A stretch of 64,000 nucleotides of DNA, from positions 19,189 to 83,188 of the forward strand of contig JBFJPL010000003.1 of NCBI GenBank assembly GCA_041617155.1, in the 5' to 3' direction. Below the pieces are notes generated by a model. It was not told where the DNA came from, searched no databases, and saw nothing but the letters and a program-made list of their open reading frames with translations. The translations under genes were made by a program, and so were the position numbers. Source of the stretch: Kiloniellales bacterium. Its GTDB lineage: Bacteria > Pseudomonadota > Alphaproteobacteria > Kiloniellales > JAKSDN01. Each line of letters begins with the position of its first letter. The first letter of the stretch is position 1. Below are positions 2-62,580 of this stretch, one piece after another.

Positions 2-718
2 TATGCCTTCGGGGTCGACATGGGATCGAAGAGCGACGGCCGCTTCCATGCCGACGGCAGCGTTTATTCGACCGGCCTGATCGACGACTACGCCACCGCG
101 ACCCTGAGCTTCCCGGGCAACTTCGGCGGCCAGGCGAGCGGCGAGGCGATCCTCAACTGGTCGCGCAGCGTTCTGGAAAACGTGCTCGCCTCGCACCGCA
201 GCGTGCGGGTCTACAACTGCAGCGACGGCGTTCGCATCGCCGGCGCCTTGCCCAAGGTGGCGCGCGCGATCGAGTTGCCGGCCGATCCGGTCGACGCCGC
301 GGCGCTCAAGCGGAGCATCGCCGGGTCTTTGCGCGTCTTTACCGCCAAGTTGCTGCAAGACATGTGGGACGGCGACGCCCGGCTGGCCGAGGTCGAGGCG
401 GTCTTCGATCGCCTGGAAGCCGACCTACGGGACAACGAGGACGGTGCGGAGCAGGGCATCGGCTGGATCCACGCGCTGTTCGAGACCGTCGGCCGGGCCG
501 GCGAACAGAGCGCGGTCACCAAGGCCTACTTGACCGGCACGACGCTGCTGATCATCGGCTGTGTCCGCTGGTACGACCGGCGGCTCGCCGACGCCAAGGA
601 CCGGACGCGCTATCGCGAAATCGCCGCGCAACTGGTGCGTGAGACCTTCCGCGATATGAGGCGGCAGTTGACCGAGCTGGTCCGGGAAACCGACCAGCGC
701 CTGCGCGCGGTCGGCTAG
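2..718 (+). CDS. C-terminal part of a hypothetical protein whose 5' end lies upstream of the window. Flagellin-locus associated, function unknown; a Maf/DUF115-type flagellin-modification role is only a guess.
   Basis: The frame of ORF 20..718 stays open back to base 2 (YAFGVD-MGSKSDGRF...), so the gene is cut by the window edge. Its stop TAG 716-718 lies in the palindrome CTAG that also supplies the stop of the convergent gene. Confidence 0.55.
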   Translation, partial: YAFGVDMGSKSDGRFHADGSVYSTGLIDDYATATLSFPGNFGGQASGEAILNWSRSVLENVLASHRSVRVYNCSDGVRIAGALPKVARAIELPADPVDAAALKRSIAGSLRVFTAKLLQDMWDGDARLAEVEAVFDRLEADLRDNEDGAEQGIGWIHALFETVGRAGEQSAVTKAYLTGTTLLIIGCVRWYDRRLADAKDRTRYREIAAQLVRETFRDMRRQLTELVRETDQRLRAVG

Positions 719-2706
719 ACGCCGGGTTTACGTGAGGGCCCCCGCGGGGCTCCGGTGGCGCAGTGGTCGCGCCACATGGCCCGGTAGGCCTGTTCCAGAG
801 CCCGCGCGAAACCGGCGACGTCGGCCAGCGGCGAGCGGCTCACCGCCTCGCGCAGGCCGGCCCGCAGCTCGGCCAGACGGCCAAGGTCGGCCGACAGGTC
901 AGCGGCCAGGGCGGCGAGCGCCGCTGCGGATTCGGCGGCCCAGCCGGGATGGCCCGCCGCGGCGACCAGACTTGCCCCCAGTCTCGTGCCGTGCCGGTCG
1001 CCGCTCAGGACCAGCAGCGGTACGCCCATCCACAAGGCCCGGCAGTTGTCCGCCAGCTCGCCCAGCGACCCGTTGGAGAGCGCCAAGTCGACGTGCTGGT
1101 AGAAATCGAACTCGGTCTGGAAGTTGTCGGCCATGTTGACGACATCGACACGGTTGCGCAGACCCAAGTGCGCGAACAGTTCCAACGGCCGGTCGATGCA
1201 GGACTGGTCCTGGTCGAAGCGGTTGCAGATCAATAGCCTGGCCCGGTCGAGCGACCGCAGCAGCCCGGCCCAGTGCGCCACGGTCCGCGGGCCGATCGCG
1301 CCCAGCTCGCCCGAGACGCCAAGCGTCAGGTGCCCGTGCGCCGGCGCGGGCAGGGGGCCGACCGGCGGCAGCAGGCTCGGCGCGCCGTAGGCGAAAGCGG
1401 CGCGTGGCAGGCGCCACACGGCCTCGCCGGTCGCGGGCGGCGGACAGTCGGCGGGCCAGGCCAGCTCGTCGGTGACGAAGTGGTCGATGGCGGCGACGCC
1501 GGTCGGATGCGGCGTGCCGAACCAGCTGAGCGCCACGGGCGCCGGGCGCCGGGCGAAGACCAGCGGTCGGCCGCCCTGTTCGTGGCCCGACAGATCGACC
1601 GCGATGTCGATCTGGTCGCCACGCAGGATTTGCCAGACCGTCTCGTCGTCGACTCCGGTGATGTCGGTCCACTTGTCGGACCGGCGCATCAGTCCCTCGG
1701 AGGTCACGTCGCTGCGGGTGCCGTCGCTGTAGCAGAAGAGCTCGACCGCCGTGCGGTCGTGCGCCTCGAGGATCGGCTTGAGCAGGCGCATCAGGTCATT
1801 GTCGTAGAACCCGCCCGAGAGGTAGGCGACGCGCAGCCGGCGCTCCGGTTCGGCATCTGCGCCTGCCGCCGGCCGCCAGGGCTCGATCCCGCCCGCGTGG
1901 CGCTGCTGCCATTCCCGATGGGCCGCGGTGAGGGCCGCGCTGGGGGTCTCCGGATCGCGCGCCAAATCCGCCAGCCAGAGGGAGTGCAGATCGGCGCGCT
2001 CCGGCGCCAGGTCGACGGCGGTCCGGTGGCAGGCGTCGGCCTCCGCCACCCGGCCGGCGGCGCTCAGGGTTCGAGCCAGGCCACTGACGTCCTCGGCCAG
2101 CGCCACGCCGTCATGGAGCACCGCGTGGAACGCTGCCATCGACCGTTCGAGCTGGCCGTTGCCGTAGCCGGCGCGGGCCATGAGCCGCAGGGTCGGAACA
2201 TCGCCGGGCGTCAGCTCGAGCTGTTTCCCGCTGTCGGCGGCCGCGCCGGCGAAATCGCCGGCTTCGAGCTTGCGCCGCGCCCGGTCGCGATAAACATGGC
2301 GATGGGTCGTCTCCAGGTTCCTGAAGAAGCTGCCGAAGCGCGCCGGCAGCAGACCCGTGATGGTCGGATGGGGCGCCAAGGCGGTCGCCACCTTGGCATG
2401 GAACAGCCCGTCGGCGACCTTGCCCAGGCGCGCGTAGGTCGCGGCCAGCGCCTCGGCGAATTCCTGAACGCCGGGATCGATCTCGTGCGCCTTTTCCAGC
2501 AGCTTGAGCGCCTGAGTCGGTTCATCGAGATCGAGCGTGACCAGGCCGAGCAGAAAGAACGCCTCGGCACATGCCGAATGCTGTTTCAGGGCGCTTTCGC
2601 AGGCCAGGATGGCGTCGTCGTGCAGCTCGGATTCCAGGCAGGCGGCCGCCTGTCGGATGGCCGCCGCAACCGCGCTCTCGTCCCGGTCCATGCCGGTCGG
2701 TTCCAT
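715..2706 (-). CDS. TPR-repeat plus GT41 (SPINDLY/OGT-like) glycosyltransferase; FlmG-like candidate flagellin glycosyltransferase
   Basis: 663 aa counted from ATG 2706 (MEPTGMDRDES...). The N-terminal half has TPR-like helices (AEAFFLLGLVTLDLDEPTQALKLLEKAHEIDP...). The C-terminal half matches the COG3914/OGT pattern (RLRVAYLSGGF...IDIAVDLSGHEQGGRPLVFARRPAPVALSWFGTPHPTGVAAIDHFVTDE). It sits 41 nt downstream of flagellin 1 on the same strand. The upstream 350 codons of track ORF 715..3780 are an out-of-frame shadow over the flagellin. Confidence 0.8.
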   Translation of the reverse strand: MEPTGMDRDESAVAAAIRQAAACLESELHDDAILACESALKQHSACAEAFFLLGLVTLDLDEPTQALKLLEKAHEIDPGVQEFAEALAATYARLGKVADGLFHAKVATALAPHPTITGLLPARFGSFFRNLETTHRHVYRDRARRKLEAGDFAGAAADSGKQLELTPGDVPTLRLMARAGYGNGQLERSMAAFHAVLHDGVALAEDVSGLARTLSAAGRVAEADACHRTAVDLAPERADLHSLWLADLARDPETPSAALTAAHREWQQRHAGGIEPWRPAAGADAEPERRLRVAYLSGGFYDNDLMRLLKPILEAHDRTAVELFCYSDGTRSDVTSEGLMRRSDKWTDITGVDDETVWQILRGDQIDIAVDLSGHEQGGRPLVFARRPAPVALSWFGTPHPTGVAAIDHFVTDELAWPADCPPPATGEAVWRLPRAAFAYGAPSLLPPVGPLPAPAHGHLTLGVSGELGAIGPRTVAHWAGLLRSLDRARLLICNRFDQDQSCIDRPLELFAHLGLRNRVDVVNMADNFQTEFDFYQHVDLALSNGSLGELADNCRALWMGVPLLVLSGDRHGTRLGASLVAAAGHPGWAAESAAALAALAADLSADLGRLAELRAGLREAVSRSPLADVAGFARALEQAYRAMWRDHCATGAPRGPSRKPGV

Positions 2707-2747
2707 GTCGGCGTTATCCGGCTTGCTCGTGGTCGCCCATGCCACGC

Positions 2748-3569
2748 CTACCTGAAGAGCTGCAGCACCGCCTGCTCGCTCTGGCCGGCGAAGGCCAGGG
2801 CGCTGATGCCCAGCTGCTGGCGGGTCTGCAGGGCCACCAGGTTGGCGCCCTCCTCGGTAATGTCGGCCAGGGTCAGCTTGTCGGCGCCGGCTTCGAGCAC
2901 GTTGACGTAGCTTTCGTTGAAGTCGAGCCGGGTCTGCAGCAGCGCGATGTTGGAGCCCAGCGTCTGGGCCTCGCCGCTGAGCGTTTCGATGGCGCTGGTG
3001 ATCTCGGCCAGGGCGGCGGTGATCACGCTGGCCAGGCTGAAGTTGGCCGCCGAGGTCAGGGCGAGCCCCGTGCTGCCCGCCCGGACGTCGATCGAATCGA
3101 TGTTGAGCACGCTCGTGGTATCTGTGCTGAACGACACCTCGAGGGTCTCGCCGGTGCCGTTCACCAGGTTCAGGCCCTGGTAGTTGGCGTCGCCGGTCAG
3201 GTTGTCGATCTGGGTGCGCAGCTCGTTGTACTGGTCGACCAGGCTGGTCAGCTCGTTGCCGGTCGCGGTCTTGGCGGCGATCGCCAGGCCCTTCATCTGC
3301 TGCACGATGGCGTCGACCGACTCGATAGCTTCCAGCGCCGTGGTGACCGAGGAGATCGACTGGTCGATGCCCTCCTTCTTCTCGTCCATGTCGCGCGCCC
3401 GGTCGCTGATCGCCTTCGATTCGAAGAAGATGCGGGCGTCGTCGATCGGGCTGGCAACCCGGAGCCCGGACGACAGCCGGTTCTGGGTGCGCGAGATCAG
3501 ACGCTCGGTGCTCAACAGCGCGAGCAGGTTCTCGCGCACGGCGGCGGAAAGGGAAATCTCGGAGGCCAT
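2748..3569 (-). CDS. fliC: Flagellin (short alphaproteobacterial type), paralog 1
   Basis: 273 aa. Conserved flagellin N-terminus (NRLSSGLRVASPIDDARIFFE) and C-terminus (LVALQTRQQLGISALAFAGQSEQAVLQLFR), with a Ser/Thr-rich centre. GGAG lies about 10 nt upstream of the ATG. Confidence 0.95.
   Translation of the reverse strand: MASEISLSAAVRENLLALLSTERLISRTQNRLSSGLRVASPIDDARIFFESKAISDRARDMDEKKEGIDQSISSVTTALEAIESVDAIVQQMKGLAIAAKTATGNELTSLVDQYNELRTQIDNLTGDANYQGLNLVNGTGETLEVSFSTDTTSVLNIDSIDVRAGSTGLALTSAANFSLASVITAALAEITSAIETLSGEAQTLGSNIALLQTRLDFNESYVNVLEAGADKLTLADITEEGANLVALQTRQQLGISALAFAGQSEQAVLQLFR
2772..2812. repeat. 41-nt stretch identical between the 3' ends of the two flagellin genes (partner copy at 3866-3906)
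   Basis: ctgctcgctctggccggcgaaggccagggcgctgatgccca is present at both positions. The surrounding roughly 130 nt differ at only scattered sites. Confidence 0.9.
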
Positions 3570-3628
3570 CGTCCCGTCTCCATACTGGAAGGGTTGCTAC
3601 GAACGGTCTTGTTCTTCGATGGCCTGGT

Positions 3629-3644
3629 TGCAATCGCTGTACCA
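3629..3644 (-). promoter_or_regulatory. sigma54-type -24/-12 promoter of flagellin 1
   Basis: The minus strand reads TGGTACAGCGATTGCA against consensus TGGCAC-N5-TTGCW, with correct GG-N10-GC spacing. It lies about 60 nt upstream of ATG 3569. Confidence 0.7.
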
Positions 3645-3719
3645 CAAGAAGTATGCAATTAAAACAGATAGTTAAAGATATCTGGTGAATTTCGTGGCGG
3701 TCATGCTTGCCGGTCGGGA

Positions 3720-3754
3720 GGCAGGCATTGCCGGGACCGATGGCAAAAGTTACC
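3720..3754. promoter_or_regulatory. Candidate enhancer (bEBP/FlbD-type) dyads upstream of the flagellin-1 sigma54 promoter
   Basis: GGCAGGCATTGCC (3720-3732) and GGCAAAAGTTACC (3742-3754) both follow the pattern GGCA-N5-T(G/A)CC. They lie 75-110 bp upstream of the promoter. Confidence 0.5.
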
Positions 3755-3778
3755 GGCGCCGCGGGGCGGCGCAGGGGC

Positions 3779-3807
3779 AAAAAAAGGGGGGCGCTTGCGC
3801 GCCCCCC
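3779..3807 (-). terminator. Rho-independent terminator after flagellin 2
   Basis: The minus strand reads GGGGGGCGC-GCAA-GCGCCCCCC followed by TTTTTTT, a perfect 9-bp GC stem. It lies 35 nt after the flagellin-2 stop and separates it from the flagellin-1 enhancer/promoter. Confidence 0.85.
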
Positions 3808-3841: not shown

Positions 3842-4663
3842 CTATCGGAACAGCGCCAACACCGACTGCTCGCTCTGGCCGGCGAAGGCCAGGGCGCTGA
3901 TGCCCAACTGCTGGCGAGTCTGCAATGCCACCAGGTTGGCGCCTTCCTCGGTGATGTCGGCCAAGGTCAGCTTGCCGGCGCCTTCCTCGAGAACGTTGAC
4001 GTAGTTCACGGTGAAGTCGAGGCGGGTCTGTAACAAGGCCACGTTCGAACCGATCTCCTGGCCCTCGCCTTCGAGGGTCTCGACCGCGGCATCGAGTTCC
4101 ACGATCGCCGCATCGATGTTCGAGGTGAGGCTGAAGTTCGCCGCCGAGGTGATGTCGAGGCCGGTCGTGTCGGTGGTCAGGTCGACCGAATCGATGGCCA
4201 GCTGGCTCGAGGTCAGGTTGCTGAACTCGACGGTCAGCGTCTCGCCGGTGCCGTTGACCAGGTTGAGGCCCTGGAAGGTGGCGTCGGCCGCCAGGTTGTC
4301 GATCTGGGTCAACAGCTCGTTGTACTGCGAGACCAGCGATGCCAGCTCGGTGCCGGTCGCCGATTTGGCGGCGATCGCCAGACCCTTGGCCTGACGGACG
4401 ACCGAGTCGATCGTCTCGACCGCCTCGAGGGCGGCGCTGACCGAAGAGATCGCCTGATCGATGCCGCTCTTCTTTTCGTCGAGCGCGCTGGCCCGGTCGC
4501 TGAGCGACTTGGCCTCGAAGAAGACACGCGCATCGTCGACCGGGCTCGCGATGCGCAGGCCGGACGACAGACGGTTGTTGGTGCGGTTGATCAGGTCGCT
4601 GGTGTTGCCCAGCGCGAGCACGCTGGCGCGTGCGGCTGCGGAAAGGGTGATTTCACTTGCCAT
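3842..4663 (-). CDS. fliC: Flagellin, paralog 2
   Basis: 273 aa, colinear with paralog 1 without indels. Same N and C termini (NRLSSGLRIASPVDDARVFFE ... ALAFAGQSEQSVLALFR). GGAG lies upstream of the ATG. Confidence 0.95.
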   Translation of the reverse strand: MASEITLSAAARASVLALGNTSDLINRTNNRLSSGLRIASPVDDARVFFEAKSLSDRASALDEKKSGIDQAISSVSAALEAVETIDSVVRQAKGLAIAAKSATGTELASLVSQYNELLTQIDNLAADATFQGLNLVNGTGETLTVEFSNLTSSQLAIDSVDLTTDTTGLDITSAANFSLTSNIDAAIVELDAAVETLEGEGQEIGSNVALLQTRLDFTVNYVNVLEEGAGKLTLADITEEGANLVALQTRQQLGISALAFAGQSEQSVLALFR

Positions 4664-4736: not shown

Positions 4737-4752
4737 CGCAATGGCCGTGCCA
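4737..4752 (-). promoter_or_regulatory. sigma54-type -24/-12 promoter of flagellin 2
   Basis: The minus strand reads TGGCACGGCCATTGCG, a near-perfect match with correct spacing. It lies about 75 nt upstream of ATG 4663. Confidence 0.8.
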
Positions 4753-4917: not shown

Positions 4918-5751
4918 TCAGGCGAAGAGGTTGAGCACCGAGCCCGGTTCGACTTCCCGGGGCAGGAGCGTGCTCTCGGCCAGCGAGTCGGTGAGCGCCT
5001 GGGCGGCTTCGAAGGCGAAGGATATATTGGTCAGGATCTGCGCGGTGCGGTCGCGCAGCGCCTGGATCTCGTCGATCTGCTTCTTGCGCTCGGCGATCTC
5101 GATGTCGTCGATCTTGAGCTTGGCCTGGTCCAGGCTGCGGTCCACGGTTTTGATCAGGTTGACCGACAGCGTGTTGTTGATTTCGATGATCGCGAGCGAT
5201 CCGTCGAGGTCGCTCCTGACGGCGTCGATCGCATCCTGCGCGGCCTGAACGTCCGCCGCCGAGGCGAAGTCGTTGGTGACGATGGCCTCGATCGCCGCCA
5301 GGCCGTCGGCCTTGGTCGCCGCCAGCCCGTCCGGCGCGCCCAAGCGGCCGGGGGTGGCGCTCAGCAGCTTGTCCAGCGACTGCAGCACCTCGGCCCGCTT
5401 GCTGTCGAACTCGGCCACGGTCGTGGGATCGGCTAGCGCGCGCAGCTCATCGAGCTGATTCTGCAGGTCCTTCACGGTCAGCCGGTTGGTCTTGACCGTG
5501 GCGCTATAGGCTTTGACCTCCTCGAGTTCGCGTTCCAGGCGGCTTGCCTTGACCCGCAGCAAGGCGGTCTTGCCCTGCCCGAAGTCGGACTCCTGGAATT
5601 CCGCGATCTTCGCATCGAGGCGGGCCAGCTCGACGTTCTGGGCGATGTTGAACTGCAGCTCGAAGTTCGGGCGCGCCGCCGCCTGCGCCAGCCGCACCAG
5701 GGAGGTGGCGATGCTGTTGACGATGGTGTTATTGGTCGGAAACGTCAGCAT
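4918..5751 (-). CDS. Hypothetical coiled-coil protein in the flagellin/hook-associated-protein operon (unknown function)
   Basis: 277 aa, Ala/Leu/Asp/Glu-rich heptad-like sequence with no TM or signal peptide. Sits between flgL (78 nt upstream) and the flagellin-2 control region. The C-terminus ...EPGSVLNLFA resembles the flagellin ends ...SVLALFR / AVLQLFR. I recognise no family. Confidence 0.7.
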   Translation of the reverse strand: MLTFPTNNTIVNSIATSLVRLAQAAARPNFELQFNIAQNVELARLDAKIAEFQESDFGQGKTALLRVKASRLERELEEVKAYSATVKTNRLTVKDLQNQLDELRALADPTTVAEFDSKRAEVLQSLDKLLSATPGRLGAPDGLAATKADGLAAIEAIVTNDFASAADVQAAQDAIDAVRSDLDGSLAIIEINNTLSVNLIKTVDRSLDQAKLKIDDIEIAERKKQIDEIQALRDRTAQILTNISFAFEAAQALTDSLAESTLLPREVEPGSVLNLFA

Positions 5752-5829
5752 GGTCGATCCAACAAATTAGAGCCCGGACCAGTTTACACCGATGCCCGTT
5801 AAGTTCGTCCTAATGGACTAGCTAAACGG

Positions 5830-7020
5830 TCATATGAAATCCAGAAGCGTGAGCGACTGAAGCCTGGCGAGCGAGGCGTAGGATGCCTCGAGCACCTGCT
5901 GATTGCTTTGCAGCCGGACGACGACTTCGTTGCGGTCGATGTGCTCGATGTCGTGGATCACGCCCTCGGCGTAGGCCGAGAGGCTTTCGTGTCGTTCGCG
6001 CGCGAACTTCAGGTTGTCGCGCGCCCGGCTCAGTTCGATGCGCAACTGGTCCAGAGTGTCGATACCGCTGCCGTTCAGGGCATCCAGGGCGCCGTTCAGC
6101 ATGTCGCGCGCCTTGGCGACGACCGCCCGTTGGAAGGGGTCGCCGGTGTCGCCGTCCGGCAGGTTGGCGACCGCGTCGAGCGCGCTCAGAACCTGCTGGA
6201 AGGCGGTCAGGTCGGCGCGCACGTCGAAGGTCACGTCCAGGTCGTCGTCGGCCCGTACGGTGGTCGCCTGGGTGTCGCCCTGATAGTAGTCCAACTTCGG
6301 GTTGGCCAGCAGGGCGGCCGCGTCCAGGCGGTCGACGTAGTACTGCCACAGCGCCGGGTCCTCGGCGACGAACTCGCTCAAGGTCGGGTTGTCCAGGTCG
6401 GCCGGCAGCGGCCCGGCCGGCAGCGCGCCGTTCTTGTCGAAAAAAATCTGCTGGTAGAAGGACCCCTGGGCGAAGGGCAGGGTGTTGCCTTGGACCTGGG
6501 TATAGTCGGCCTCGTAGTAGGTGCTGTCGACCGTCACCCCGTCGGCCTCGATCAGCGTCACGCTGGTGTAGCCCGGCGCGGACAGGTCGACCGGCGGCCG
6601 GTCGACCCGCGCGCCGGCGAAGAGAAAGCGCGCGCCGTCGCGCGAGTTGAGCAGGTCCGCGACCATGGCCCGCCGGTCCGCCGCCAGCTGGACCAGGTCG
6701 CTGCCCAAGGCGTCGGGGCCGTTGAGCGCCGTTTCCAGGATGGCGCGGAAATCACGGCTGACCTCCTCGATCGAGGCGACACTGAGATCGAGCAGTTCGA
6801 GGCGCTGCTCCCCGGTCGCGATGTTGCTGGTGAACTGTGTGATCTCCAGGCGCGTGATCTCCAGCGAGACCAGGCGCAACGCGTCCTTGTCGATGCCGGC
6901 GTAGTCCTGGGATTTCTTGTCGCTGGCGAGCTGGATTTGCAGGTCCTGCGCGCGCGACAAAGTGTTGAGCGTGTGGAACAGCGTCAGATTGTTCTGCGCG
7001 AGAGTGCCGACACGGATCAT
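5830..7020 (-). CDS. flgL: Flagellar hook-associated protein 3 (hook-filament junction)
   Basis: 396 aa with flagellin-like termini (MIRVGTLAQNNLTLFHTLNTLSRAQ... ; ...LEASYASLARLQSLTLLDFI). Located directly downstream of flgK. Confidence 0.85.
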   Translation of the reverse strand: MIRVGTLAQNNLTLFHTLNTLSRAQDLQIQLASDKKSQDYAGIDKDALRLVSLEITRLEITQFTSNIATGEQRLELLDLSVASIEEVSRDFRAILETALNGPDALGSDLVQLAADRRAMVADLLNSRDGARFLFAGARVDRPPVDLSAPGYTSVTLIEADGVTVDSTYYEADYTQVQGNTLPFAQGSFYQQIFFDKNGALPAGPLPADLDNPTLSEFVAEDPALWQYYVDRLDAAALLANPKLDYYQGDTQATTVRADDDLDVTFDVRADLTAFQQVLSALDAVANLPDGDTGDPFQRAVVAKARDMLNGALDALNGSGIDTLDQLRIELSRARDNLKFARERHESLSAYAEGVIHDIEHIDRNEVVVRLQSNQQVLEASYASLARLQSLTLLDFI

Positions 7021-7052: not shown

Positions 7053-9107
7053 TCAGACGATCTCGATCAGCAGGTCGAGCAGTTCGGAGATCGTGGTGGT
7101 CAAGCGCGCCGAGGCGGCATAGGCGTTTTGCAGCACCACGAGCTGGGCCAGTTCCTCGTCCAGGTTGACCTGGCTGATCGCGGCCGACTGGGTCTCCAGC
7201 GCGATGGCGAAGCTCTCGCCGAAGGCGATTTCGTCGCCGAGGACGCTGGCGTTCGCGGCATTGAGCGAAAGAATGTTGGCGGCATAGCCGGCCAGCGTGG
7301 TGACGCTGACCGGCAAGCCGCCGGCCGCGGCGAAGCTTCGGTCCGTGGTGAAAGCATCGGCCATGGCCCGCGCGATCGATCCGTCGCCGGCGGAGATCGC
7401 GATGTCGCCGACGGCGAGGGTGACAGCCGACGACAGCTCGCCGCGCGCGACCAGGTTGGGATCGGCCAGCACCGCCGGGCGTACTTCCAGGAGGCCGGCC
7501 GTGCCGGCCTGGCCCGCGCGCAGATTCAGCTGTCCGCTCAGGGTCCCGGTGTCGGACAGGAAGAAGTTGTCGCCGTCGCCGTCGCGAATCTCCAACCGGA
7601 AGCCGCTGCCCTCGTTCACCACCGTGGCCGCGATGTTGGCGCCGCCGAGCGCGGCGTTGATCGCCGTCGCGATGTCGGTCAGGCTGTCGCCGGCGGCGTA
7701 GGCCACGCTGGTGGTCGCGCCGGCAACGGAAAAGTCGAGCGAGCCGGCGAGGCCCAGTACGGCGGTGGCGCTGGCGCTGCGGTCGCTCTGATAGACGTCG
7801 AAGTCGCTGCCGCTGACGAACAGGTCGTTGAGTCCCAGGAAGTGGGCCAGACCCTGGGTGGTGTTTCCCGTGGCGACCGCGCTATCGCTTTCGTTGACCG
7901 CGATGCCGTTGCCGCCGGCTGCGGTCAGCACCAACTGCCCGTTGGCGTTGATGCTGGCGCTGGCATTGGCCATGGCGTTGATCTGGGCGACCAACTGGCC
8001 GACGTTGGGCGGCGCCAGGGCGGTCAGGTCGATGTCCAGCGCCTCGACCACCAGGCCGGCGGCATCGACCACCGCGACGCGGAAGTTGCCGCCGAAGGCC
8101 GGTGCGTCGGTCGCCGCGACGCTGCGGCTGCCGGTCAGGCTGCCGGGCGCCGGGAAGGCGGTGCCGTCGTTGTGCAGGGCGTTGATGCCGTCCCTCAGGG
8201 CCTCGGCCAAGCGGTCGATCTCGGCCTGCAGGTCGACCAGGGTTTCGTCGCGCAGGGTCAGCAGGCCGTCCAGGCGGCCGGAGCGAATCTCGCCGGTGAT
8301 GTCCAAACCGGCCGTCCCGTAGGTGATGCCGGCCAGGCCGTTCTGCAGGGTGGCGCCGGCGGCGACCTGGGCCGAGGGCGTGAATCCCAGATTGGTCGGC
8401 AGGCTGTCGAGCAGGGTCCGCCCGGAGCTCGTGGTGATGACCACTTCGCCGCTGGTTCGCTCGAAATAGTGGATATCGATCTCGGCGGCGAGCTGGTCGA
8501 TCAGGAGGTCGCGCCTGTCCCGCAGATCGCCGACCGGCCGGCCGATCGCGAGGCCGCTGGCGATCTCCACGTTCACGTCGTCGATGTCGGGCAGCAGGCC
8601 GTTGATCCGGTCGATCGAGGCGGCGATCTCACGGTCGGTCGAGGCCCGCATCCGTTGCAGGTTGTCGGTCATGAAGTTCAGCTGGTCGGCCAGACGGCGG
8701 GCGGTGTCCACGACGCCGTTGCGCGCAACCACGCTTTCCGGCGCGTTCGCCATGGCTTCGATCGCCGATCCGAACTCGGTCAGGCCGTGGCTGACCGAGC
8801 TGTTGTCGGCCAGCGAGCCGAACAGGTTTTGGGTCTGGTCGAGGATGCCGCTCTGAACCTGCTGTCCGGTCAGCTTGGCGATATGGTCGCGGATCTGGCG
8901 CAGCAGCTGTTCGTCGACCGTGCGCTGCACCGCGGCCAGCTCGACGCCGACCGCCTGGCCGGCCACCACCAGGGTCTGTGGCTGGCTGACCTTGCGCGTG
9001 TAGCCCTCGGTGTTGACGTTGGCGATGTTGTTGGAAACGGTCTGCAAGGCGGCCTGCATCGTCTGCAGGCCGGACAGCGCGGTATTGAGCGAACCGATAA
9101 GCGACAT
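7053..9107 (-). CDS. flgK: Flagellar hook-associated protein 1
   Basis: 684 aa. The N-terminus MSLIGSLNTALSGLQTMQAALQTVSNNIANVNTEGYTRK is the axial-protein motif. The C-terminus is ...VVLQNAYAASARLTTTISELLDLLIEIV. Confidence 0.9.
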   Translation of the reverse strand: MSLIGSLNTALSGLQTMQAALQTVSNNIANVNTEGYTRKVSQPQTLVVAGQAVGVELAAVQRTVDEQLLRQIRDHIAKLTGQQVQSGILDQTQNLFGSLADNSSVSHGLTEFGSAIEAMANAPESVVARNGVVDTARRLADQLNFMTDNLQRMRASTDREIAASIDRINGLLPDIDDVNVEIASGLAIGRPVGDLRDRRDLLIDQLAAEIDIHYFERTSGEVVITTSSGRTLLDSLPTNLGFTPSAQVAAGATLQNGLAGITYGTAGLDITGEIRSGRLDGLLTLRDETLVDLQAEIDRLAEALRDGINALHNDGTAFPAPGSLTGSRSVAATDAPAFGGNFRVAVVDAAGLVVEALDIDLTALAPPNVGQLVAQINAMANASASINANGQLVLTAAGGNGIAVNESDSAVATGNTTQGLAHFLGLNDLFVSGSDFDVYQSDRSASATAVLGLAGSLDFSVAGATTSVAYAAGDSLTDIATAINAALGGANIAATVVNEGSGFRLEIRDGDGDNFFLSDTGTLSGQLNLRAGQAGTAGLLEVRPAVLADPNLVARGELSSAVTLAVGDIAISAGDGSIARAMADAFTTDRSFAAAGGLPVSVTTLAGYAANILSLNAANASVLGDEIAFGESFAIALETQSAAISQVNLDEELAQLVVLQNAYAASARLTTTISELLDLLIEIV

Positions 9108-9133: not shown

Positions 9134-9592
9134 CTAGAGAACCTGGTTGACCGATACCGCTGGCAGCGTGTCCACCGGTCCGCCTTCGCTCAATCCGCCG
9201 TTCGCCTGGTAGCGGTTGCCGCCGCGCTGCTCGTCACGCACCGCGTGGGCGATGGCTCTCACCAGGCGGCCGTTGACCTCGATCCCGGCCCTGAGCGCAA
9301 GCGCATTTGCTTCGGTCGCGGCGGCCAGATCTTGCGCCGCCGCCTTGATCGCGGTCTTTGCCTCGGAGTCGAGGTCCCGCAGCAGTTCCGGACGGTCGGC
9401 CAGCTGGCCGAGCAGGTCCCGGTAGGTCTTCGTCGCGGCCTGCTTATCGGGCAACAGGGATTCGATCTCCCCGGTGCGCATGGTCTCGAGCAGCCGAACT
9501 TCGTCCTGCATCAGCGCCGTCAGGCGGCCGACGGTCCGGGTCAGTTGTTCGGCAATCCGGGGGGCCGTCGTCTCAGTGGTGTTCTCGGTCAC
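9134..9592 (-). CDS. Small helical flagellar protein, FlgN/FlbY-like (putative export chaperone or assembly factor)
   Basis: 152 aa, all-helical composition. Lies between flgJ and flgK with a 4-nt overlap to flgJ, a position equivalent to flbY in the Caulobacter flgI-cheL-flbY operon. The family assignment rests on context and composition only. Confidence 0.5.
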   Translation of the reverse strand: MTENTTETTAPRIAEQLTRTVGRLTALMQDEVRLLETMRTGEIESLLPDKQAATKTYRDLLGQLADRPELLRDLDSEAKTAIKAAAQDLAAATEANALALRAGIEVNGRLVRAIAHAVRDEQRGGNRYQANGGLSEGGPVDTLPAVSVNQVL

Positions 9593-11069: not shown

Positions 11070-11129
11070 GGCTTGCCTGTTCTCCCGACGATTTCCGGAC
11101 CCGAAAGCGGGCGGGCCGCCCAACGGCAA

Positions 11130-11145
11130 TGCGAAAGGCGTGCCA
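11130..11145 (-). promoter_or_regulatory. sigma54-type -24/-12 promoter of the flgI-flgJ-flgN-like-flgK-flgL operon
   Basis: The minus strand reads TGGCACGCCTTTCGCA, with correct spacing and one mismatch in the -12 element. It lies about 60 nt upstream of ATG 11069. Confidence 0.7.
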
Positions 11146-11242
11146 CTCTCAGGGCTGTGGAAAAGCTCAGGAAATCAGGTATATAGGTTTCCCAAGACAA
11201 TGCGTAGGCGGCCAGCCGCCAAGCACCCGGCAAGGATGAACC

Positions 11243-11255
11243 GGCAACAATTACC
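11243..11255. promoter_or_regulatory. Candidate enhancer dyad upstream of the flgI sigma54 promoter
   Basis: GGCAACAATTACC lies about 100 bp upstream of 11130-11145. A related GGTACAGTTTGCC lies at 11672-11684. Confidence 0.4.
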
Positions 11256-11317
11256 CGCGGACGGCTGCTGATGGACCTTGGAATTTCAGCGCGAGAAGAT
11301 CGGCGCGTCGGGCAGGC

Positions 11318-11668
11318 TCAGACGACCCGGTCCAAGACCAGGCCTGAATCGTCGACTTCGCCATTGGCCGCGGCGACGATGCTGTCGATGTGCTTGACCA
11401 GTTCTTCCGGCGGGAAGCGCTGAACCACTTCACCGGATTCGGGGTCGACGATCTCGACGAAAACCCGGCTGAGCTCCTGGTCGTAGGTCAAGCGCGATCG
11501 CGAAGACTGCGCGGCCTGAAACGACCGGGCAGATCGCTCGGCGTTCTGGTTGGGCTCCACGCGCTCCTTGCGCACCACGGGCTCCGCGGGGCGGTTGGCG
11601 GCTGGGGCCGGTAGCCTCTGGCGAGGCGGTTCGGCGGACAGCGCTATATTTGTGATCGCGACCAACAT
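11318..11668 (-). CDS. flaG: FlaG-family flagellar protein
   Basis: 116 aa. The C-terminal motif LTYDQELSRVFVEIVDPESGEVVQRFPPEELV matches the FlaG signature (xYDxE...V.vvD..TGEvIRQiPpEe). Confidence 0.75.
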   Translation of the reverse strand: MLVAITNIALSAEPPRQRLPAPAANRPAEPVVRKERVEPNQNAERSARSFQAAQSSRSRLTYDQELSRVFVEIVDPESGEVVQRFPPEELVKHIDSIVAAANGEVDDSGLVLDRVV

Positions 11669-11807
11669 CAGGGTACAGTTTGCCTATTATCACTAATATA
11701 TAGCACATAGCATCATGATGCAAATGTATTAATAAAAACTTTACTGCACACTACTATTCCGATGCCTGGTTTCATCTGGGAAAGCCACACGAATCTGCGT
11801 TTTATGA

Positions 11808-11822
11808 TTAACGGATTGTTAA
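11808..11822. promoter_or_regulatory. CtrA-type box (TTAA-N7-TTAA) upstream of fliX
   Basis: TTAACGGATTGTTAA is a perfect match. It lies 61 nt upstream of the fliX ATG within a roughly 210-bp AT-rich divergent region. Confidence 0.6.
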
Positions 11823-11882
11823 CCCCGGCGCTCCCAGTCTGGTCGATGGATGCGAGCCATGAGCAGGTAGTGAGCAGCTAGA

Positions 11883-12296
11883 ATGAAGATCGATCCTCTT
11901 GCCAAACAGCGCCTGTCACCGACCCGGCGCAGCGAGCGCGCCAAGCAGCCGGAGGCGGGCGGTTTTGCCGAGGAACTGAGCGGCGAGGCCCCGGCCGGCG
12001 GCTCGGTCGGCGGCGCCACGGCGCCCAGTCCGGTCGACGGCCTGCTTGCCCTGCAGGAGGTGTCGGACGGCTTGGCGCGCCATGCCAAGGCGCGGCAGCG
12101 CGGCGAGGCCCTGCTCGAAGAGCTCGATAGACTGCGCCTGGATCTCCTGACCGGGACACTATCCAAGGCCCGGCTGGAGCATCTGGCGGCTTTGACGGCG
12201 GCGCAGCGGGAGCGGATCGATGATCCACACTTGGCGCAGATCATCGAGGAGATCGAGCTGCGGGCGGCGGTCGAACTGGCCAAACTCGACCACTAG
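11883..12296 (+). CDS. fliX: Class II flagellar assembly regulator FliX
   Basis: 137 aa. GLLALQEV...RQRGEALLEELDRLRLDLLTG...DPHLAQIIEEIELRAAVELAKL fits the FliX family pattern. It is divergent from the flgI-containing strand as in Caulobacter, with a perfect TTAA-N7-TTAA box 61 nt upstream. Confidence 0.7.
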   Translation: MKIDPLAKQRLSPTRRSERAKQPEAGGFAEELSGEAPAGGSVGGATAPSPVDGLLALQEVSDGLARHAKARQRGEALLEELDRLRLDLLTGTLSKARLEHLAALTAAQRERIDDPHLAQIIEEIELRAAVELAKLDH

Positions 12297-12372
12297 GGCG
12301 CGGAAACAACAACCGAACATTTTTTACCTGATATCAACGTCATGAAGTGACCATGACGATGCATTCTTGTGC

Positions 12373-12400
12373 TTGAAGGGTCGCGGGAAATTCATATACT
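12373..12400 (+). promoter_or_regulatory. Candidate sigma70-type promoter of dksA with a flanking inverted repeat
   Basis: TTGAAG-N16-TATACT. The -10 element is bracketed by the inverted repeat GTCGCGG...CCGCGAC (12380-12407). Confidence 0.35.
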
Positions 12401-12436
12401 CCGCGACAATCTGGAGGACTCAGGCAGGGGTGAGGC

Positions 12437-12859
12437 ATGGCGAATGGGACTAGGTTAGCGATCGGTTACCGTCCGTCCGACGATGAGCCGTTCATGAATT
12501 CCCGTATGAGGGATTATTTTCGGCAGAAACTGCTCGCCTGGAAGCAGGAACTGCTCGAGGAGTCGACCGAAACGCTCCAGCATCTCCAGGAAGGCGGTCT
12601 GGCCGAGCCGGATATCGCCGACCGGGCCTCGCTGGAGACCGACCGCTCGCTCGAACTGCGCACCCGAGACCGGGAGCGCAAGCTGATTGCCAAGATCGAG
12701 GACGCCCTGCGCCGGATCGACGAGGGCTCCTATGGCTATTGCGAGGAAACCGCCGAGCCGATCAGCCTGAGACGGCTCGAGGCGCGGCCCATCGCGACCC
12801 TCTCGATCGAGGCCCAGGAGCGTCACGAGCGCATGGAGCGCACCCACCGCGACGATTGA
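12437..12859 (+). CDS. dksA: RNA polymerase-binding transcription factor DksA (Cys-poor variant)
   Basis: 140 aa. It carries the coiled-coil tip motif PDIADRASLETDRSLELRTRDRERKLIAKIEDAL (DxxDxA) and YGYCEETAEPISLRRLEARPIATLSIEAQE. Only 1 of the 4 canonical zinc-finger Cys is present. Confidence 0.9.
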   Translation: MANGTRLAIGYRPSDDEPFMNSRMRDYFRQKLLAWKQELLEESTETLQHLQEGGLAEPDIADRASLETDRSLELRTRDRERKLIAKIEDALRRIDEGSYGYCEETAEPISLRRLEARPIATLSIEAQERHERMERTHRDD

Positions 12860-12918
12860 ACCCGCCCAAGGGGGAAAATCAAACCGCCGGAGCCCGTGGC
12901 CGCGATTCGGACAGGCTG

Positions 12919-13689
12919 CTAGAACGGCCAGAGAATATCGAAGATCTGCTGCCCGTAGCGCGGCTGCTGGAGATCGCTGATCTGGCCGCGTCCGCCGTAG
13001 GCGATGCGCGCCTCGGCGATCTGGTCGAACTGGATCGTGTTGGTCGAGGCGATGTCCTCGGGCCTGATGATGCCGGCCACCTGCAGCTCGCGCATTTCGA
13101 AGTTGACCCGCACCTCCTGGCGCCCGGCGACCACCAGATTGCCGTTGGGCAGCACCTGGATGACCAGGGCGGCGACGCTCAGATCGATGGCTTCGTCGCG
13201 CTGGATGCTGCCGACCCCTTGGGTGCTGCCGGAGCTGTCCAGGTCGATCAGGCTGGTCGGATCGATCGCGGTCGGCAGGATCTGGCTGAGACTAGCCTCG
13301 TAGCCGAGGATCGAGCTGGCCGAGGAGTCCTCCGCCGCGGTCCGGCTGCGGTTGGTCGTGTTGGAGATCGCGGCGCTGTCCTGGATCGAGATGTTGATGG
13401 TTACGATGTCGCCCACCGTGGCTGCGCGCTGGTCCTGCAGGAAATGTTGCGAGCCCGGCCGCCACAGCGAATTGGCCTGGTGCGTGACCAAGGCCGGTGC
13501 CGGCTGCGGTACCTGCACCGGCTGCCGGCCGATGATCCGCTGCGGGTTCTCGATGCCGCTCATCGGCGGCGGCCGGCCGATTTCGGCGATCCGCTGCAGC
13601 GCGTTGCAGGCGCTCAGGGACGCGGCGATCAGCAGGGTTCCGGCCAGGCGGAGCGGGCGGGCGAGGGAGGTGCGATGCTGCGGGGCCAA
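12919..13689 (-). CDS. flgH: Flagellar L-ring lipoprotein
   Basis: 256 aa with a lipobox (LLIAASLSAC). SLWRPGSQHFLQDQRAATVGDIVTINISI... is typical of FlgH. Confidence 0.9.
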   Translation of the reverse strand: MAPQHRTSLARPLRLAGTLLIAASLSACNALQRIAEIGRPPPMSGIENPQRIIGRQPVQVPQPAPALVTHQANSLWRPGSQHFLQDQRAATVGDIVTINISIQDSAAISNTTNRSRTAAEDSSASSILGYEASLSQILPTAIDPTSLIDLDSSGSTQGVGSIQRDEAIDLSVAALVIQVLPNGNLVVAGRQEVRVNFEMRELQVAGIIRPEDIASTNTIQFDQIAEARIAYGGRGQISDLQQPRYGQQIFDILWPF

Positions 13690-13700
13690 GGGAGCCTCCT

Positions 13701-14651
13701 TCAGTTGACGGTCGCGATGGTGGCGGGCAGCACCCGGACGGTACCGGCCCGCACCACCACGCCATTGATCACGGCATTTGACTTGGTGTTCATGACCCGG
13801 ATGACCTGACCGCTGGCACCGTCTTCCAGGGCACGGCCCTGGGCGGTCAGGACCATGCGGTCGGTTTCCAGCCGCAGGATCACCAGGCTCTTGCGGGGCA
13901 CCAGCACGGGTTCCCGCAGGTTGCCGGTGCGGATCGCTTCGCCGGCCCGGATCGGTCGGCGCGGGCTCTTGCCGATCAGACGCTGTGCGTCGAGCACCAC
14001 GTTGCCTGCCAGACGATCGCTGCGTTGGCGCAGCCAGTCGACATCCGCGTGGCTGATGATCTCACCCGGCAAGGCGCGCCGGCGCAGCACCGGAACCTCG
14101 GTCATCTGGACCGCACGACCGGTGACCGTGCCGCGGGCCAGGGGCGCCGCGCCGGCTGGTGCCTGGAGATGGGCCATGAAGCGGCCGCTGGCCGGGTCGT
14201 GGGCGAGGCTGGTCAGGGCCAGGGTCGGCTCGGCGTCGACCGGCAACTCCAGGTGCAGCGTCGGGTTGTCCAGAACCAGCGAGACGTCACCGCTGACGCC
14301 GCGCTCGGCCAAGGCCGCCTGCAGCGCGGCTTTGATGTGCGCGGCGCCGATGACATGGCTGGCGCGGGTCACCACGACACTGTCGAGCGCCGAGGCGGGT
14401 CGCCAGTCGATACCGTAGCCGCTGGCCACGGCGGCGAGCCAGCGGGCGTCCAGCTCTACTCGGCGGCCCGGGGCGGGCGCGCGCGCGACCGCGGTGTCGG
14501 CAGCATCCGTCAGCCCCTCGAACAGGTCGCCCAGGCGCAGGATCGCGCCGTCGATGACGACCGACTTCTTGAGCAGGACCGGCGTCTGGCCGGCCTGGGC
14601 GGGCAGGGCGAGCAGGAGGCCGAAAATCAGGGCCAGGCAGCGGGTTCTCAT
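13701..14651 (-). CDS. flgA: Flagellar P-ring assembly chaperone FlgA
   Basis: 316 aa with a signal peptide. The C-terminal SAF-like region is GEAIRTGNLREPVLVPRKSLVILRLETDRMVLTAQGRALEDGASGQVIRVMNTKSNAVINGVV. Located between flgG and flgH. Confidence 0.8.
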   Translation of the reverse strand: MRTRCLALIFGLLLALPAQAGQTPVLLKKSVVIDGAILRLGDLFEGLTDAADTAVARAPAPGRRVELDARWLAAVASGYGIDWRPASALDSVVVTRASHVIGAAHIKAALQAALAERGVSGDVSLVLDNPTLHLELPVDAEPTLALTSLAHDPASGRFMAHLQAPAGAAPLARGTVTGRAVQMTEVPVLRRRALPGEIISHADVDWLRQRSDRLAGNVVLDAQRLIGKSPRRPIRAGEAIRTGNLREPVLVPRKSLVILRLETDRMVLTAQGRALEDGASGQVIRVMNTKSNAVINGVVVRAGTVRVLPATIATVN

Positions 14652-16383: not shown

Positions 16384-16428
16384 GCAGGCCGCTTCGAGGC
16401 CGCTGCCGGACGCAGTCTCAACCAGATG

Positions 16429-16436
16429 TTAACCAC
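16429..16436. promoter_or_regulatory. CtrA-type half site (TTAACCAC) upstream of fliL
   Basis: It matches the TTAACCAT 8-mer in 7 of 8 positions and lies 57 nt upstream of the fliL ATG. The same 9-mer TTAACCACG occurs at 4809-4817. Confidence 0.4.
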
Positions 16437-17078: not shown

Positions 17079-18080
17079 ATGGCTGAACCAGAGGCGGCGA
17101 CGGACAAAGACGCCGGTGGCTCGACCAAGATCCTCAACCAGGCCGAGATCGACAGCCTGCTCGGCGGCCACGACGGCCTGGACGCGCGTTCGGGTATCGC
17201 GGCGATCGTCGATTCGGCGCTCGTCTCCTACGAGCGCCTGCCCATGCTCGAGGTCGTATTCGACCGCCTCGTGCGCATGATGTCGACCTCGCTGCGCAAC
17301 TTCACGTCCGACAACGTCGAGGTCCACCTGGAGTCGATCTCCTCCTCGCGCTTCGGCGACTACCTCGATTCGATTCCTCTGCCCGCCATGCTGACGGTGT
17401 TCAAGGCGGAGGAATGGGACAACTTCGGCCTCATGGCGGTCGACTCCTCGCTGATCTATTCGATTGTCGACGTTCTGTTGGGCGGCCGGCGCGGCTCCGC
17501 CGCCGTACGCATGGAAGGCCGGCCCTACACCACGATCGAGCGCAACCTGGTCGAGCGCATGGTGCACGTCGTCCTGGCCGACCTATCGGCCGCTTTCGAC
17601 CCCTTGTCGCCGGTCACCTTCCGTTTCGAGCGGCTGGAATCCAACCCGCGCTTTGCCACCATTGCTCGGCCGGCCAACGCCACCGTCGTCGCCCAGCTGC
17701 GGGTCGAGATGGAGGATCGTGGCGGCCGCTTCGAGCTGATGCTGCCCTACGCCACCCTGGAGCCGGTCCGCGAGCTCTTGCTGCAGATGTTCATCGGCGA
17801 GAAGTTCGGCCATGACTCCATTTGGGAAAGCCATCTGACCACCGAGCTGTGGCAGACCGAGCTGCCGATCCAGGCGGTGCTCGACGAAGTCGAGGTGCAC
17901 TTGGGCGAAGTCATCGGCTGGACCGAAGGCAGCCGCCTCGAACTCAACTGCGGCCCGAATTCGAAGGTCGAGCTGCGGTGCGGCGACATCGCCATGTTCG
18001 AGGGCCAAATGGGACGAAAGGGATCGAACATCGCAGTGCGGGTCGCCGGCAAGCTGACCGGCAACGGGGAGTCCACCTGA
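17079..18080 (+). CDS. fliM: Flagellar motor switch protein FliM
   Basis: 333 aa. It has the N-terminal CheY-P-binding-type motif ILNQAEIDSLLG and central FliM core similarity (LEVVFDRLVRMMSTSLRNF...). Confidence 0.9.
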   Translation: MAEPEAATDKDAGGSTKILNQAEIDSLLGGHDGLDARSGIAAIVDSALVSYERLPMLEVVFDRLVRMMSTSLRNFTSDNVEVHLESISSSRFGDYLDSIPLPAMLTVFKAEEWDNFGLMAVDSSLIYSIVDVLLGGRRGSAAVRMEGRPYTTIERNLVERMVHVVLADLSAAFDPLSPVTFRFERLESNPRFATIARPANATVVAQLRVEMEDRGGRFELMLPYATLEPVRELLLQMFIGEKFGHDSIWESHLTTELWQTELPIQAVLDEVEVHLGEVIGWTEGSRLELNCGPNSKVELRCGDIAMFEGQMGRKGSNIAVRVAGKLTGNGEST

Positions 18081-18592
18081 TGGATCTGTTGCCGTTCGAA
18101 CACTGGAGCCTATTGGCCGACGCGGTTCTCGCGGTCCTCCTGGTCGCGACCATCGCCTATGCCGCGATACTCGAGCGCAAGCTCTCGGGCCTGCGCGCCG
18201 CGAAGCAGGAAATGGCGGAGCTGGTCGGCCGCTTCACCGAGGCGACCAAGCGCGCGGAGAACGGCTTGGCCGAGATCAGGCAGACCGCGGAGGAAACCGG
18301 CCGAACCCTGCAGCAGGCCCTGGAGAAGGGCAACAGCTTGGCCGACGACCTGGTTTTTCTGGTTGAACGCGGCGATGCCGTTGCCGGCCGGCTCGAGCGG
18401 GGCGCCGCAAAGGGCCGTGGCCGAGCGACCGCCGAGCCACCGCCGGCCGGCCCACGGTCGGTCGCCAAAGGCCCCGGGGGAACCGCTGCAAAGGCGCCCG
18501 CTCCGGCGGCCGCCGAGGACGACGCCACATCGAGCCGCAAGCGCACGCCGGAGCAGTCCGCTCTGATGGCGGCCCTGCGGGCCATGCGCTAG
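18080..18592 (+). CDS. Hypothetical membrane-anchored coiled-coil protein with an Ala/Pro-rich tail (flagellar cluster, unknown function)
   Basis: 170 aa from ATG 18080, which overlaps the fliM stop (TGATG). It has an N-terminal TM (WSLLADAVLAVLLVATIAYAAIL), then a helical segment and a low-complexity tail. The 86 codons upstream of it in track ORF 17822..18592 overlap fliM out of frame. Confidence 0.7.
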   Translation: MDLLPFEHWSLLADAVLAVLLVATIAYAAILERKLSGLRAAKQEMAELVGRFTEATKRAENGLAEIRQTAEETGRTLQQALEKGNSLADDLVFLVERGDAVAGRLERGAAKGRGRATAEPPPAGPRSVAKGPGGTAAKAPAPAAAEDDATSSRKRTPEQSALMAALRAMR

Positions 18593-25541: not shown

Positions 25542-25556
25542 TTAAAGAATTATTTA
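25542..25556. promoter_or_regulatory. CtrA-like box (TTAA-N7-TTTA) upstream of the FlhB-C-like/fliOP operon
   Basis: TTAAAGAATTATTTA followed by CGG, preceded by TTAACC at 25536-25541. It lies 63-77 nt upstream of ATG 25479. Confidence 0.4.

Positions 25557-62504: not shown

Positions 62505-62580
<76 letters not shown>

Follow-up and report, generated by a model that had tools for sequence, protein, structure and literature searches.

What is encoded by the gene that directly follows flgL in a flagellar island of a Kiloniellales bacterium, and what part could its product play in building the filament? The gene, here called X, lies in a stretch of 64,000 nucleotides (the window; assembly GCA_041617155.1, contig JBFJPL010000003.1, positions 19,189 to 83,188 of the forward strand). 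Its coordinates in the window and the landmarks of its protein are as follows.

4918 to 5751, minus strand: X, 277 amino acids, ATG start, member of an unnamed family with a predicted flagellin fold
X residues 24 to 39: AARPNFELQFNxAQN
X residues 242 to 251: IS(F/L)AFExxQ
X residues about 262 to 268: proline-containing linker
X residues 269 to 276: PGSVLNLF

The best-supported answer is that X is a highly divergent, hitherto unnamed branch of the flagellin/HAP3 superfamily that has the D0-D1 core only, is exported through the type III secretion system of the flagellum and acts at low copy number in filament assembly. X itself is a real and conserved gene. Its codon-position GC is gene-like (0.92 at third and 0.40 at second positions, in a window of 66% GC) and homologues share its start position, supporting the ATG; an initial annotation made from the window's letters had called it coding, co-oriented with flgL and 78 nucleotides past it, which composition, homologue starts and coordinates all bear out. 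Hydropathy agrees with the same annotation that there is no transmembrane segment (maximum Kyte-Doolittle value 1.0 over 19 residues), and cysteine, histidine and tryptophan are all absent from the sequence. As had also been stated, X falls in no recognisable flagellar family: neither Pfam nor NCBIfam holds a family that matches it at threshold, or anything above noise, and the same two collections gave no family match to any of 70 diverse members of the X family.

That family is nevertheless large. A word-indexed search returned 91 homologues of 273 to 300 amino acids, and HMMER, run with a profile built from 30 sequences, detected 217 representatives of 50%-identity clusters at E<=1e-3, 158 of them at E<=1e-10, a lower bound that sets the family at no fewer than 217 such clusters. 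Nearly all members have 270 to 290 amino acids and match the profile from end to end. The N-terminal motif AARPNFELQFNxAQN is conserved, with F30, F34 and Q38 each present in at least 90%, as are the C-terminal ISLAFExxQ and the terminal PGSVLNLF. Genomes that carry X belong to Kiloniellales, Rhodospirillales, Thalassospiraceae, Magnetovibrio and Terasakiella, the last represented among others by Terasakiella sp. A23, an isolate that carries X as RYZ26_05540, and by Ca. Terasakiella magnetica. Because the family is absent from Pfam and NCBIfam, annotation pipelines call its members hypothetical, and this is so for every homologue bearing an NCBI or JGI name. The Ca. Terasakiella magnetica protein A0A1C3RKL7 (MTBPR1_70136), hypothetical at NCBI, is named 'Flagellin' in UniRef, so at least one automatic pipeline has flagged the likeness. 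The literature searched contained no description of the family or of an alphaproteobacterial FliD substitute.

The family is single-copy, of fixed length and linked to late flagellar and glycosylation genes. At all 47 loci compared, each covered for 10 kb to either side of X, the gene is present once and stands among late flagellar genes, its recurring neighbours being flgK/flgL, flaF, flbT, flagellin genes, Maf, FlmG-type TPR glycosyltransferases and pseudaminic-acid (pse) genes. Three arrangements are seen: flgK-flgL-X-flagellins-FlmG in the window and its clade; cytidylyltransferase-flbT-X-fliK-flgD-flgE; and flagellins-Maf-X followed by a convergent FlmG and then flaF-flgL-flgK. Many of the loci carry FlaF, in the order flgL-flaF-X at L029 and L037, and X is no substitute for FlaF or FlbT, since both are encoded separately in X loci. 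Other neighbours matched in Pfam are TPR-GT9, GT4, radical SAM, GNAT, amidotransferase and methyltransferase proteins, NeuB and a PseF-like enzyme; a few open reading frames near X lack a match. The length of X stays at about 277 amino acids even beside flagellins of 380 to 560, and identity between X proteins falls to 22-30% where the D0/D1 ends of the flagellins of the same genomes are almost invariant. Within those genomes the evolutionary rate of X exceeds that of FlgK and FlgL and is far above that of the flagellin core, a pattern more in keeping with an accessory of low copy number than with a bulk subunit.

Two side observations concern these loci. In distant lineages (L021, L030, L032, L035, L039, L043 and L045) X lies within large flagellin-glycosylation islands that extend 5-10 kb around it and hold, besides Maf and the FlmG-type TPR/GT41 protein, several paralogous TPR+GT9 proteins of 450-550 amino acids together with radical-SAM, GNAT, amidotransferase and methyltransferase genes. 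At L006, a long-read contig of 3x coverage, the flagellin genes downstream of X (11105-14070) are broken into fragments of 60-240 amino acids, probably by assembly frameshift errors rather than as pseudogenes.

The likeness to flagellin emerges from predicted structure, in which X folds like a short flagellin. A template-free AlphaFold2 model built on a 30-sequence family alignment is all-helical (mean predicted local distance difference test score 81.5, predicted TM-score 0.56), with helices at residues 9-54, 59-105, 112-127, 143-155 and 165-261 and predicted disorder at both termini. The two N-terminal helices jointly span 97 residues, the length of the lone C-terminal helix, and these predicted lengths match the flagellin layout with ND0 and ND1a running up and CD1 and CD0 running down. 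The initial annotation had proposed a Foldseek search with such a model. Run against the PDB, it gave D0/D1-only flagellins as the best matches (P. aeruginosa 5wk5, Caulobacter FljK 8uxj and 6xky, and Shewanella), with some 270 aligned columns, TM-scores of about 0.5 and root-mean-square deviations of 6.5-7, and then FlgL chains of the Salmonella junction at TM-scores of 0.33-0.39. A second, independent AlphaFold model, of a member 28% identical to X, again has disordered termini and places a beta-hairpin where flagellin D1 has one; its top 22 PDB matches are all flagellins, the first five being Caulobacter FljK, FljL, FljM and FljN chains. Both models thus predict the D0-D1 fold (ND0, ND1a, ND1b, hairpin, CD1, CD0), at TM-scores of 0.36-0.55. 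Generic coiled coils, in a control search of viral structures, gave similar E-values with TM-scores of 0.2-0.4 and deviations of 12-28; since Foldseek E-values of about 2e-3 are therefore not discriminating alone, the case for the fold rests on coverage, TM-score and reproducibility. Of the earlier description of X as an all-helical heptad coiled coil, the helices stand, and the generic coiled coil gives way to a predicted flagellin-type D0/D1 bundle.

Primary sequence comparison points the same way with far less force, the homology being suggestive and collinear, not significant. X does not match Flagellin_N (PF00669) or Flagellin_C (PF00700) at E<=1, none of 70 family members does so at E<=0.01, and the NCBIfam flagellin models do not match the family. 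BLASTP of X against the adjoining flagellin gives E of about 1, with the C-terminal halves in register, and hhalign of the family against alignments of the cognate flagellins, FlgL and FlgK returns a probability of about 1% (0.6% for FlgL). In a column-shuffle control the observed score was reached by 1 of 100 shuffles over the full length and by 4 of 100 for the C-terminus, where SVLNLF meets SVLALF. The profile-to-sequence alignment is collinear, profile positions 35-215 running along flagellin residues 22-219, and its 14-17 bits are near those of reversed-sequence decoys. At the C-terminus, cognate flagellins end in ...LGISALAFAGQSEQS(V/I)LxLF(R/N) and X proteins in ...ISLAFExxQ, about 16-19 extra residues and GS(V/I)LNLF(A/T/V/S), consistently across genomes; ISLAFExxQ and GSVLNLF of X parallel ISALAFAGQ and SVLALF of the cognate flagellin, and the insert between the two motifs contains a proline in 188 of 202 members. 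X itself ends ...PGSVLNLFA, and the initial annotation was right that this tail, which it quoted as ...SVLNLFA, echoes the flagellin ends ...SVLALFR and ...AVLQLFR, although the shuffle control makes the resemblance statistically weak as evidence of homology.

Set beside the D0/D1-only flagellins of Caulobacter (FljK/L/M/N), P. aeruginosa and Shewanella, X shares a length of about 275 amino acids, termini predicted to be disordered, a Cys-free composition and the motifs ISxLAF..Q and S(V/I)LxLF, as well as a predicted helix order of kinked long N helix, short return helix, hairpin or short helix and 97-residue C helix. It differs from them in giving no significant profile match, in having RPNFELQF in place of the NRLSSGLRI signature and in a proline-containing insert of about 16-19 residues before the last eight; it is also single-copy, probably has a CtrA-type and not a sigma54 promoter, and evolves much faster.

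Established families were tried and set aside. X is not FlgL/HAP3: TIGR02550 does not match it, and a bona fide flgL is separate in the window and in related loci. FliD/HAP2 (PF02465, PF07195) has no Pfam match to it, the D2-D3 head is lacking from its model and the top 50 structural matches hold no FliD chain. FlaF, FlbT and FliS fail likewise by profile, and the FlaF and FlbT genes are separate in the same loci. The initial annotation had suggested comparison with all of these and with DUF1217; the profile searches matched X to none of the former, and the DUF1217 suggestion is rejected, PF06748 giving no Pfam match and hhalign against 24 DUF1217 proteins a probability of 0.06%. GlfM, compared by description, is a bundle of about 90 amino acids against a flagellin-like 277, with only a maf-adjacent position in common. 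Weak Pfam and PDB sequence matches to DUF3819, HrpB2, influenza HA2, the heptad repeats of coronavirus S2, and de novo helical bundles were judged coiled-coil noise. From the menu of roles first offered for X, an exported structural protein gains from the predicted fold, the Cys-free composition, the late-gene linkage in 47 loci and the C-terminal motifs; a chaperone is weakened, because those loci have FlaF and FlbT genes apart from X, and X matches none of FliS, FlaF and FlbT.

Export is suggested by composition and, indirectly, by the predicted disorder at both ends of the protein. Cysteine occurs in one of 191 X family sequences (0.00% of 53,404 residues) and tryptophan makes up 0.05%; among proteins encoded at the same loci, exported axial ones (flagellins, FlgK, FlgL, FlgE, FlgG, FlgD) contain at most 0.06% cysteine, and the cytoplasmic neighbours FlbT, Maf, FlmG, NeuB, DksA and cytidylyltransferase 0.9-2.2%, with 1.0-1.5% in the first four. 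The composition of X is that of exported axial proteins, and we infer that the flagellar type III system exports it. For the gate-recognition motif of early export substrates, Evans et al. reportedly described in 2013 the consensus F-x-x-x-hydrophobic. F30-E-L-Q-F34, the motif most strongly conserved in X (window about 5650-5664), has the form and position of this motif of early, rod/hook substrates (PMC8983047), which stands at residues 32-51 in FlgB, FlgC, FliE, FlgG and FlgJ of the window and in FlgE, FlgD and FliK of L004; within the first 70 residues, FlgK and the flagellins have no gate-type motif, and FlgL has one only at residue 63. With a chance expectation of about one in three proteins, the F30/F34 motif is a lead and not a result; if functional, it would place export of X before the substrate-specificity switch.

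In the window the minus-strand gene order is flgI, rod-binding FlgJ-like, FlgN-like, flgK, flgL, X, flagellin, flagellin and FlmG-type gene, and X is separated by 78 nucleotides from flgL and by 254 from the first flagellin gene.

9134 to 9592, minus strand: FlgN-like protein, putative FlgK/FlgL chaperone (weak Pfam match below the cut-off, E 0.0013, together with position)
7053 to 9107, minus strand: flgK (HAP1), 684 amino acids (Flg_bb_rod, FlgK_D1)
5830 to 7020, minus strand: flgL (HAP3), 396 amino acids (partial matches to TIGR02550 and PRK08913)
3842 to 4663, minus strand: flagellin, 273 amino acids, D0/D1 only, ending ...SVLALFR (Flagellin_N and Flagellin_C)
2748 to 3569, minus strand: second flagellin, 273 amino acids, ending ...AVLQLFR (Flagellin_N and Flagellin_C)
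715 to 2706, minus strand: FlmG-type flagellin glycosyltransferase (TPR and GT41), about 663 amino acids
1 to 718, plus strand: 3' part of a Maf-type flagellin glycosyltransferase, open to the window's first base and convergent to the FlmG-type gene

The open reading frame listed at 715-3780 is over-extended across a flagellin gene, and the FlmG-type start is most likely at 2706. Further frames of the flagellar island (about 1-29.5 kb) encode FliL, FliM, MotB, FliP, FliO, CsrA, FlgB, FlgC, FliE, FliQ, FliR and FlhB. A scan of the island's frames found no FliD, FliS, FlaF or FlbT, in line with the earlier remark that no fliD or fliS gene was visible there.

The regulatory signals of the island set X apart from the flagellins. 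CtrA-type boxes were scanned for as TTAA-N7-TTAAC with at most one mismatch, and sigma54-type motifs as TGGCAC-N5-TTGC.

5798 to 5813, minus strand: CtrA-type box TTAGGACGAACTTAAC in the flgL-X gap, 46 nucleotides upstream of where X starts; candidate element of a promoter serving only X
11729-11744, 11807-11823, 16418-16433, 25542-25557, 25913-25928 and 47615-47630: further CtrA-type boxes
4738 to 4752, minus strand: exact sigma54-type motif, 75 nucleotides upstream of the first flagellin start
3630-3644 (second flagellin) and 11131-11145 (flgI operon), minus strand: sigma54-type motifs with one mismatch

The window holds 8 CtrA-type boxes against 0.47 expected, an enrichment of about 17-fold, and 7 of them are intergenic within the flagellar island, at flgL-X, flaG/fliX, flgF/fliL and on either side of csrA, which suggests that CtrA controls part of the flagellar regulon there. 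TTA(A/G)-N7-TTAA is kept 59-78 nucleotides before X in all flgL-X loci (L001-3, L006-15 and L041), with a varying spacer. Because the box in the flgL-X gap is conserved across the clade, X probably has its own CtrA-dependent promoter, of another type than those of the flagellins, and its placement by the initial annotation at the end of the flgK-flgL operon holds for position, with co-transcription no more than possible; a search for intrinsic terminators gave none downstream of flgL or of X. Sigma54-type motifs number 6 in the whole window against 4.8 expected, a count not above chance, so their placement alone is suggestive. The two sets of motifs together imply a putative Caulobacter-like split into CtrA-dependent and sigma54-dependent flagellar classes.

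Elsewhere in the window, the CsrA homologue (25610-25912, minus strand) lies inside the flagellar island beside a 113-amino-acid stand-alone FlhB C-terminal-domain protein (25138-25479, minus strand) and a 91-amino-acid frame without a family (24866-25141, minus strand), and its partner FliW was not seen in the island. Between fliM and an MgtE_N-like gene, about 18080-18592 on the plus strand encodes a protein of about 170 amino acids that has a single hydrophobic segment at its N-terminal end and a tail both charged and helical (MDLLPFEHWSLLADAVLAVLLVATIAYA...). The sole Rfam match of the window is a tRNA gene at 62505-62577 (plus strand).

Taken with its predicted fold, this setting suggests that X is probably a secreted, single-copy helper subunit for assembly of the glycosylated filament in a group of marine alphaproteobacteria. 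In the assembly we propose, X would be made from its own CtrA-type promoter ahead of the sigma54-dependent flagellins, exported unfolded via the flagellar type III apparatus and, at low copy number, would fill a flagellin-type site in the lattice at one filament end. There its flagellin-like N- and C-terminal D0 surface would dock on the axial structure, its divergent D1 and interrupted C-terminal helix would keep it from acting as an ordinary filament subunit, and its presence would let glycosylated flagellin start or go on polymerising. To the structural part of this reading, that X is an end-subunit of the filament, we give an even chance, and of the two ends a hook-proximal 'first subunit' seated on FlgL, like FljJ, is slightly more likely than a distal cap. 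FljJ of Caulobacter crescentus is a hook-proximal flagellin paralogue, the first to be made and exported, that forms no filament alone and has FlbT as a partner (PMC7591256). Like FljJ, X appears flagellin-type and distinct from the bulk flagellins, is plausibly made first and in some lineages has flbT beside it; FljJ, unlike X, can still be recognised as a flagellin and shares 49% identity with its paralogues. FlgL, after whose gene X is directly encoded, forms the second group of structural matches and is likewise low-copy and fast-evolving, but TIGR02550 does not match X, a separate FlgL is present in every locus and the predicted shape of X is nearer to flagellin.

The filament's distal end brings in the first competing explanation, that X is a filament cap or distal assembly factor replacing FliD, a few copies of which at the tip promote insertion of glycosylated flagellin. 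We regard this as a possibility, well short of the end-subunit reading. FliD and FliS are both absent from the 29-kb island and from all 47 neighbourhoods of late genes, these stretches around X being the scope of the absence, and reports describe alphaproteobacterial systems of the Caulobacter type as lacking FliD (PMC6913195; PMC11974857). The order flgK-flgL-X mirrors HAP1-HAP3-HAP2; X is, by inference or computation, low-copy, early-expressed, Cys-free and fast-evolving, as is FliD; its terminal helices could insert at a filament end, and the flexible proline linker before its last helix could work like the FliD legs. Work on Caulobacter has moreover predicted, for flagellin-glycosylating bacteria, a factor that assists assembly of glycosylated flagellin and has its gene in the flagellar clusters (PMC7591256). 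Yet X matches neither FliD_N nor FliD_C, its model shows neither a beta-rich head nor a plate domain, and the 50 best structural matches in the PDB include no FliD chain. Caulobacter and Rhizobiales also lack FliD and contribute no member to the named family matches, so X is no general solution to the absence of FliD.

A possible parallel for a cap substitute comes from Rhodobacterales. Phaeobacter inhibens, which has no FliD, carries a fliC-flaF-flbT-CP1 cluster, and its CP1 mutant secretes flagellin and forms no filament (PMC11974857). The Cereibacter sphaeroides copy of CP1, the protein after flbT (L048 5396-6184, plasmid pA), is a DUF1217 protein that matches PF06748 at 1.5e-38. DUF1217/CP1 thus takes the same slot as X (flaF-flbT-[gene]) in FliD-less alphaproteobacteria and is Cys-free at about 262 amino acids, but it contains glycine and tryptophan and long helices are not evident in it; being unrelated by profile-profile comparison, the two are positional analogues only. 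DUF1217 proteins as a set (P0237-P0356) are also essentially Cys-free, with cysteine in 2 of 120 sequences, which suggests that they are likewise exported flagellar proteins; the literature searched assigned them no function. Extended along these lines, X would be the missing cap or assembly factor of the FliD-less, flagellin-glycosylating alphaproteobacteria, a flagellin-derived tip protein exported ahead of flagellin, which we likewise hold possible and no better than that. Such a tip protein may be exported in the rod/hook mode via F30-x-x-x-F34, may recognise glycosylated flagellin and catalyse its insertion, and may be functionally equivalent to the unrelated DUF1217/CP1.

The nearness of flbT in some lineages raises a somewhat less probable explanation, in which X is a secreted regulatory mimic of flagellin that binds FlbT and, for as long as it stays in the cell, joins in repressing flagellin translation, with little or no structural role. 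FlbT and X form a direct tandem in seven loci (L004, L016, L018-L021 and L023), the predicted flagellin fold, the promoter of a type unlike that of the flagellins and the exported-type composition would all suit a mimic, and FljJ with FlbT is a Caulobacter precedent (PMC7591256). In most loci, however, FlbT is 5-8 kb off or outside the stretch covered, X is linked to Maf and FlmG no less strongly than to FlbT, and FljJ is still 49% identical to structural flagellins where X has no detectable similarity.

That linkage to Maf and FlmG could instead mean that X acts in the cytoplasm as an adaptor, or as a dedicated substrate, for Maf or FlmG, a functional analogue of GlfM serving as a bridge or decoy of flagellin shape that forms no part of the axial structure, an explanation we consider unlikely. 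X stands directly beside Maf in about 25 loci, mostly between Maf and the FlmG-type gene and within islands of sugar-modifying enzymes, and Maf-2 enzymes without a TPR domain depend on GlfM, a helical factor encoded in cis (bioRxiv 10.1101/2023.12.03.569772). GlfM resembles X in being helical and encoded in cis beside maf, but it is a cytoplasmic FliS/FliT-like four-helix bundle of 89 amino acids, different in size and fold; the near-total lack of cysteine, tryptophan and histidine across the 53 thousand residues of the X family argues for export, and in the window's clade X comes after flgL and not after Maf. Least probable of all is a very divergent minor flagellin co-polymerising along the filament, to which the flagellin-like predicted fold, a size like that of the local 273-amino-acid flagellins and the UniRef name of A0A1C3RKL7 might point, since flagellin D0/D1 ends stay almost invariant in genomes where X diverges to 22-30% identity, the N-terminal signature is absent, the C-terminal helix is broken by the proline linker and X is always single-copy and of fixed length.

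Flagellin-superfamily paralogues with specialised roles are known. What is new in X, as a predicted flagellin-type filament-assembly protein, is a branch invisible to Pfam, NCBIfam and profile-profile comparison, marked by motifs of its own, an interrupted C-terminal helix and a consistent place in flagellin-glycosylation islands; at minimum, X would add to the flagellin superfamily a branch that escapes sequence methods. In many alphaproteobacteria, working flagella are assembled with no recognisable FliD cap. The X family, flagellin-shaped in prediction, probably secreted, single-copy and set among flagellin and glycosylation genes, fits the assembly factor predicted for glycosylated flagellin, and as it is carried by culturable Terasakiella strains it offers a concrete and testable candidate.

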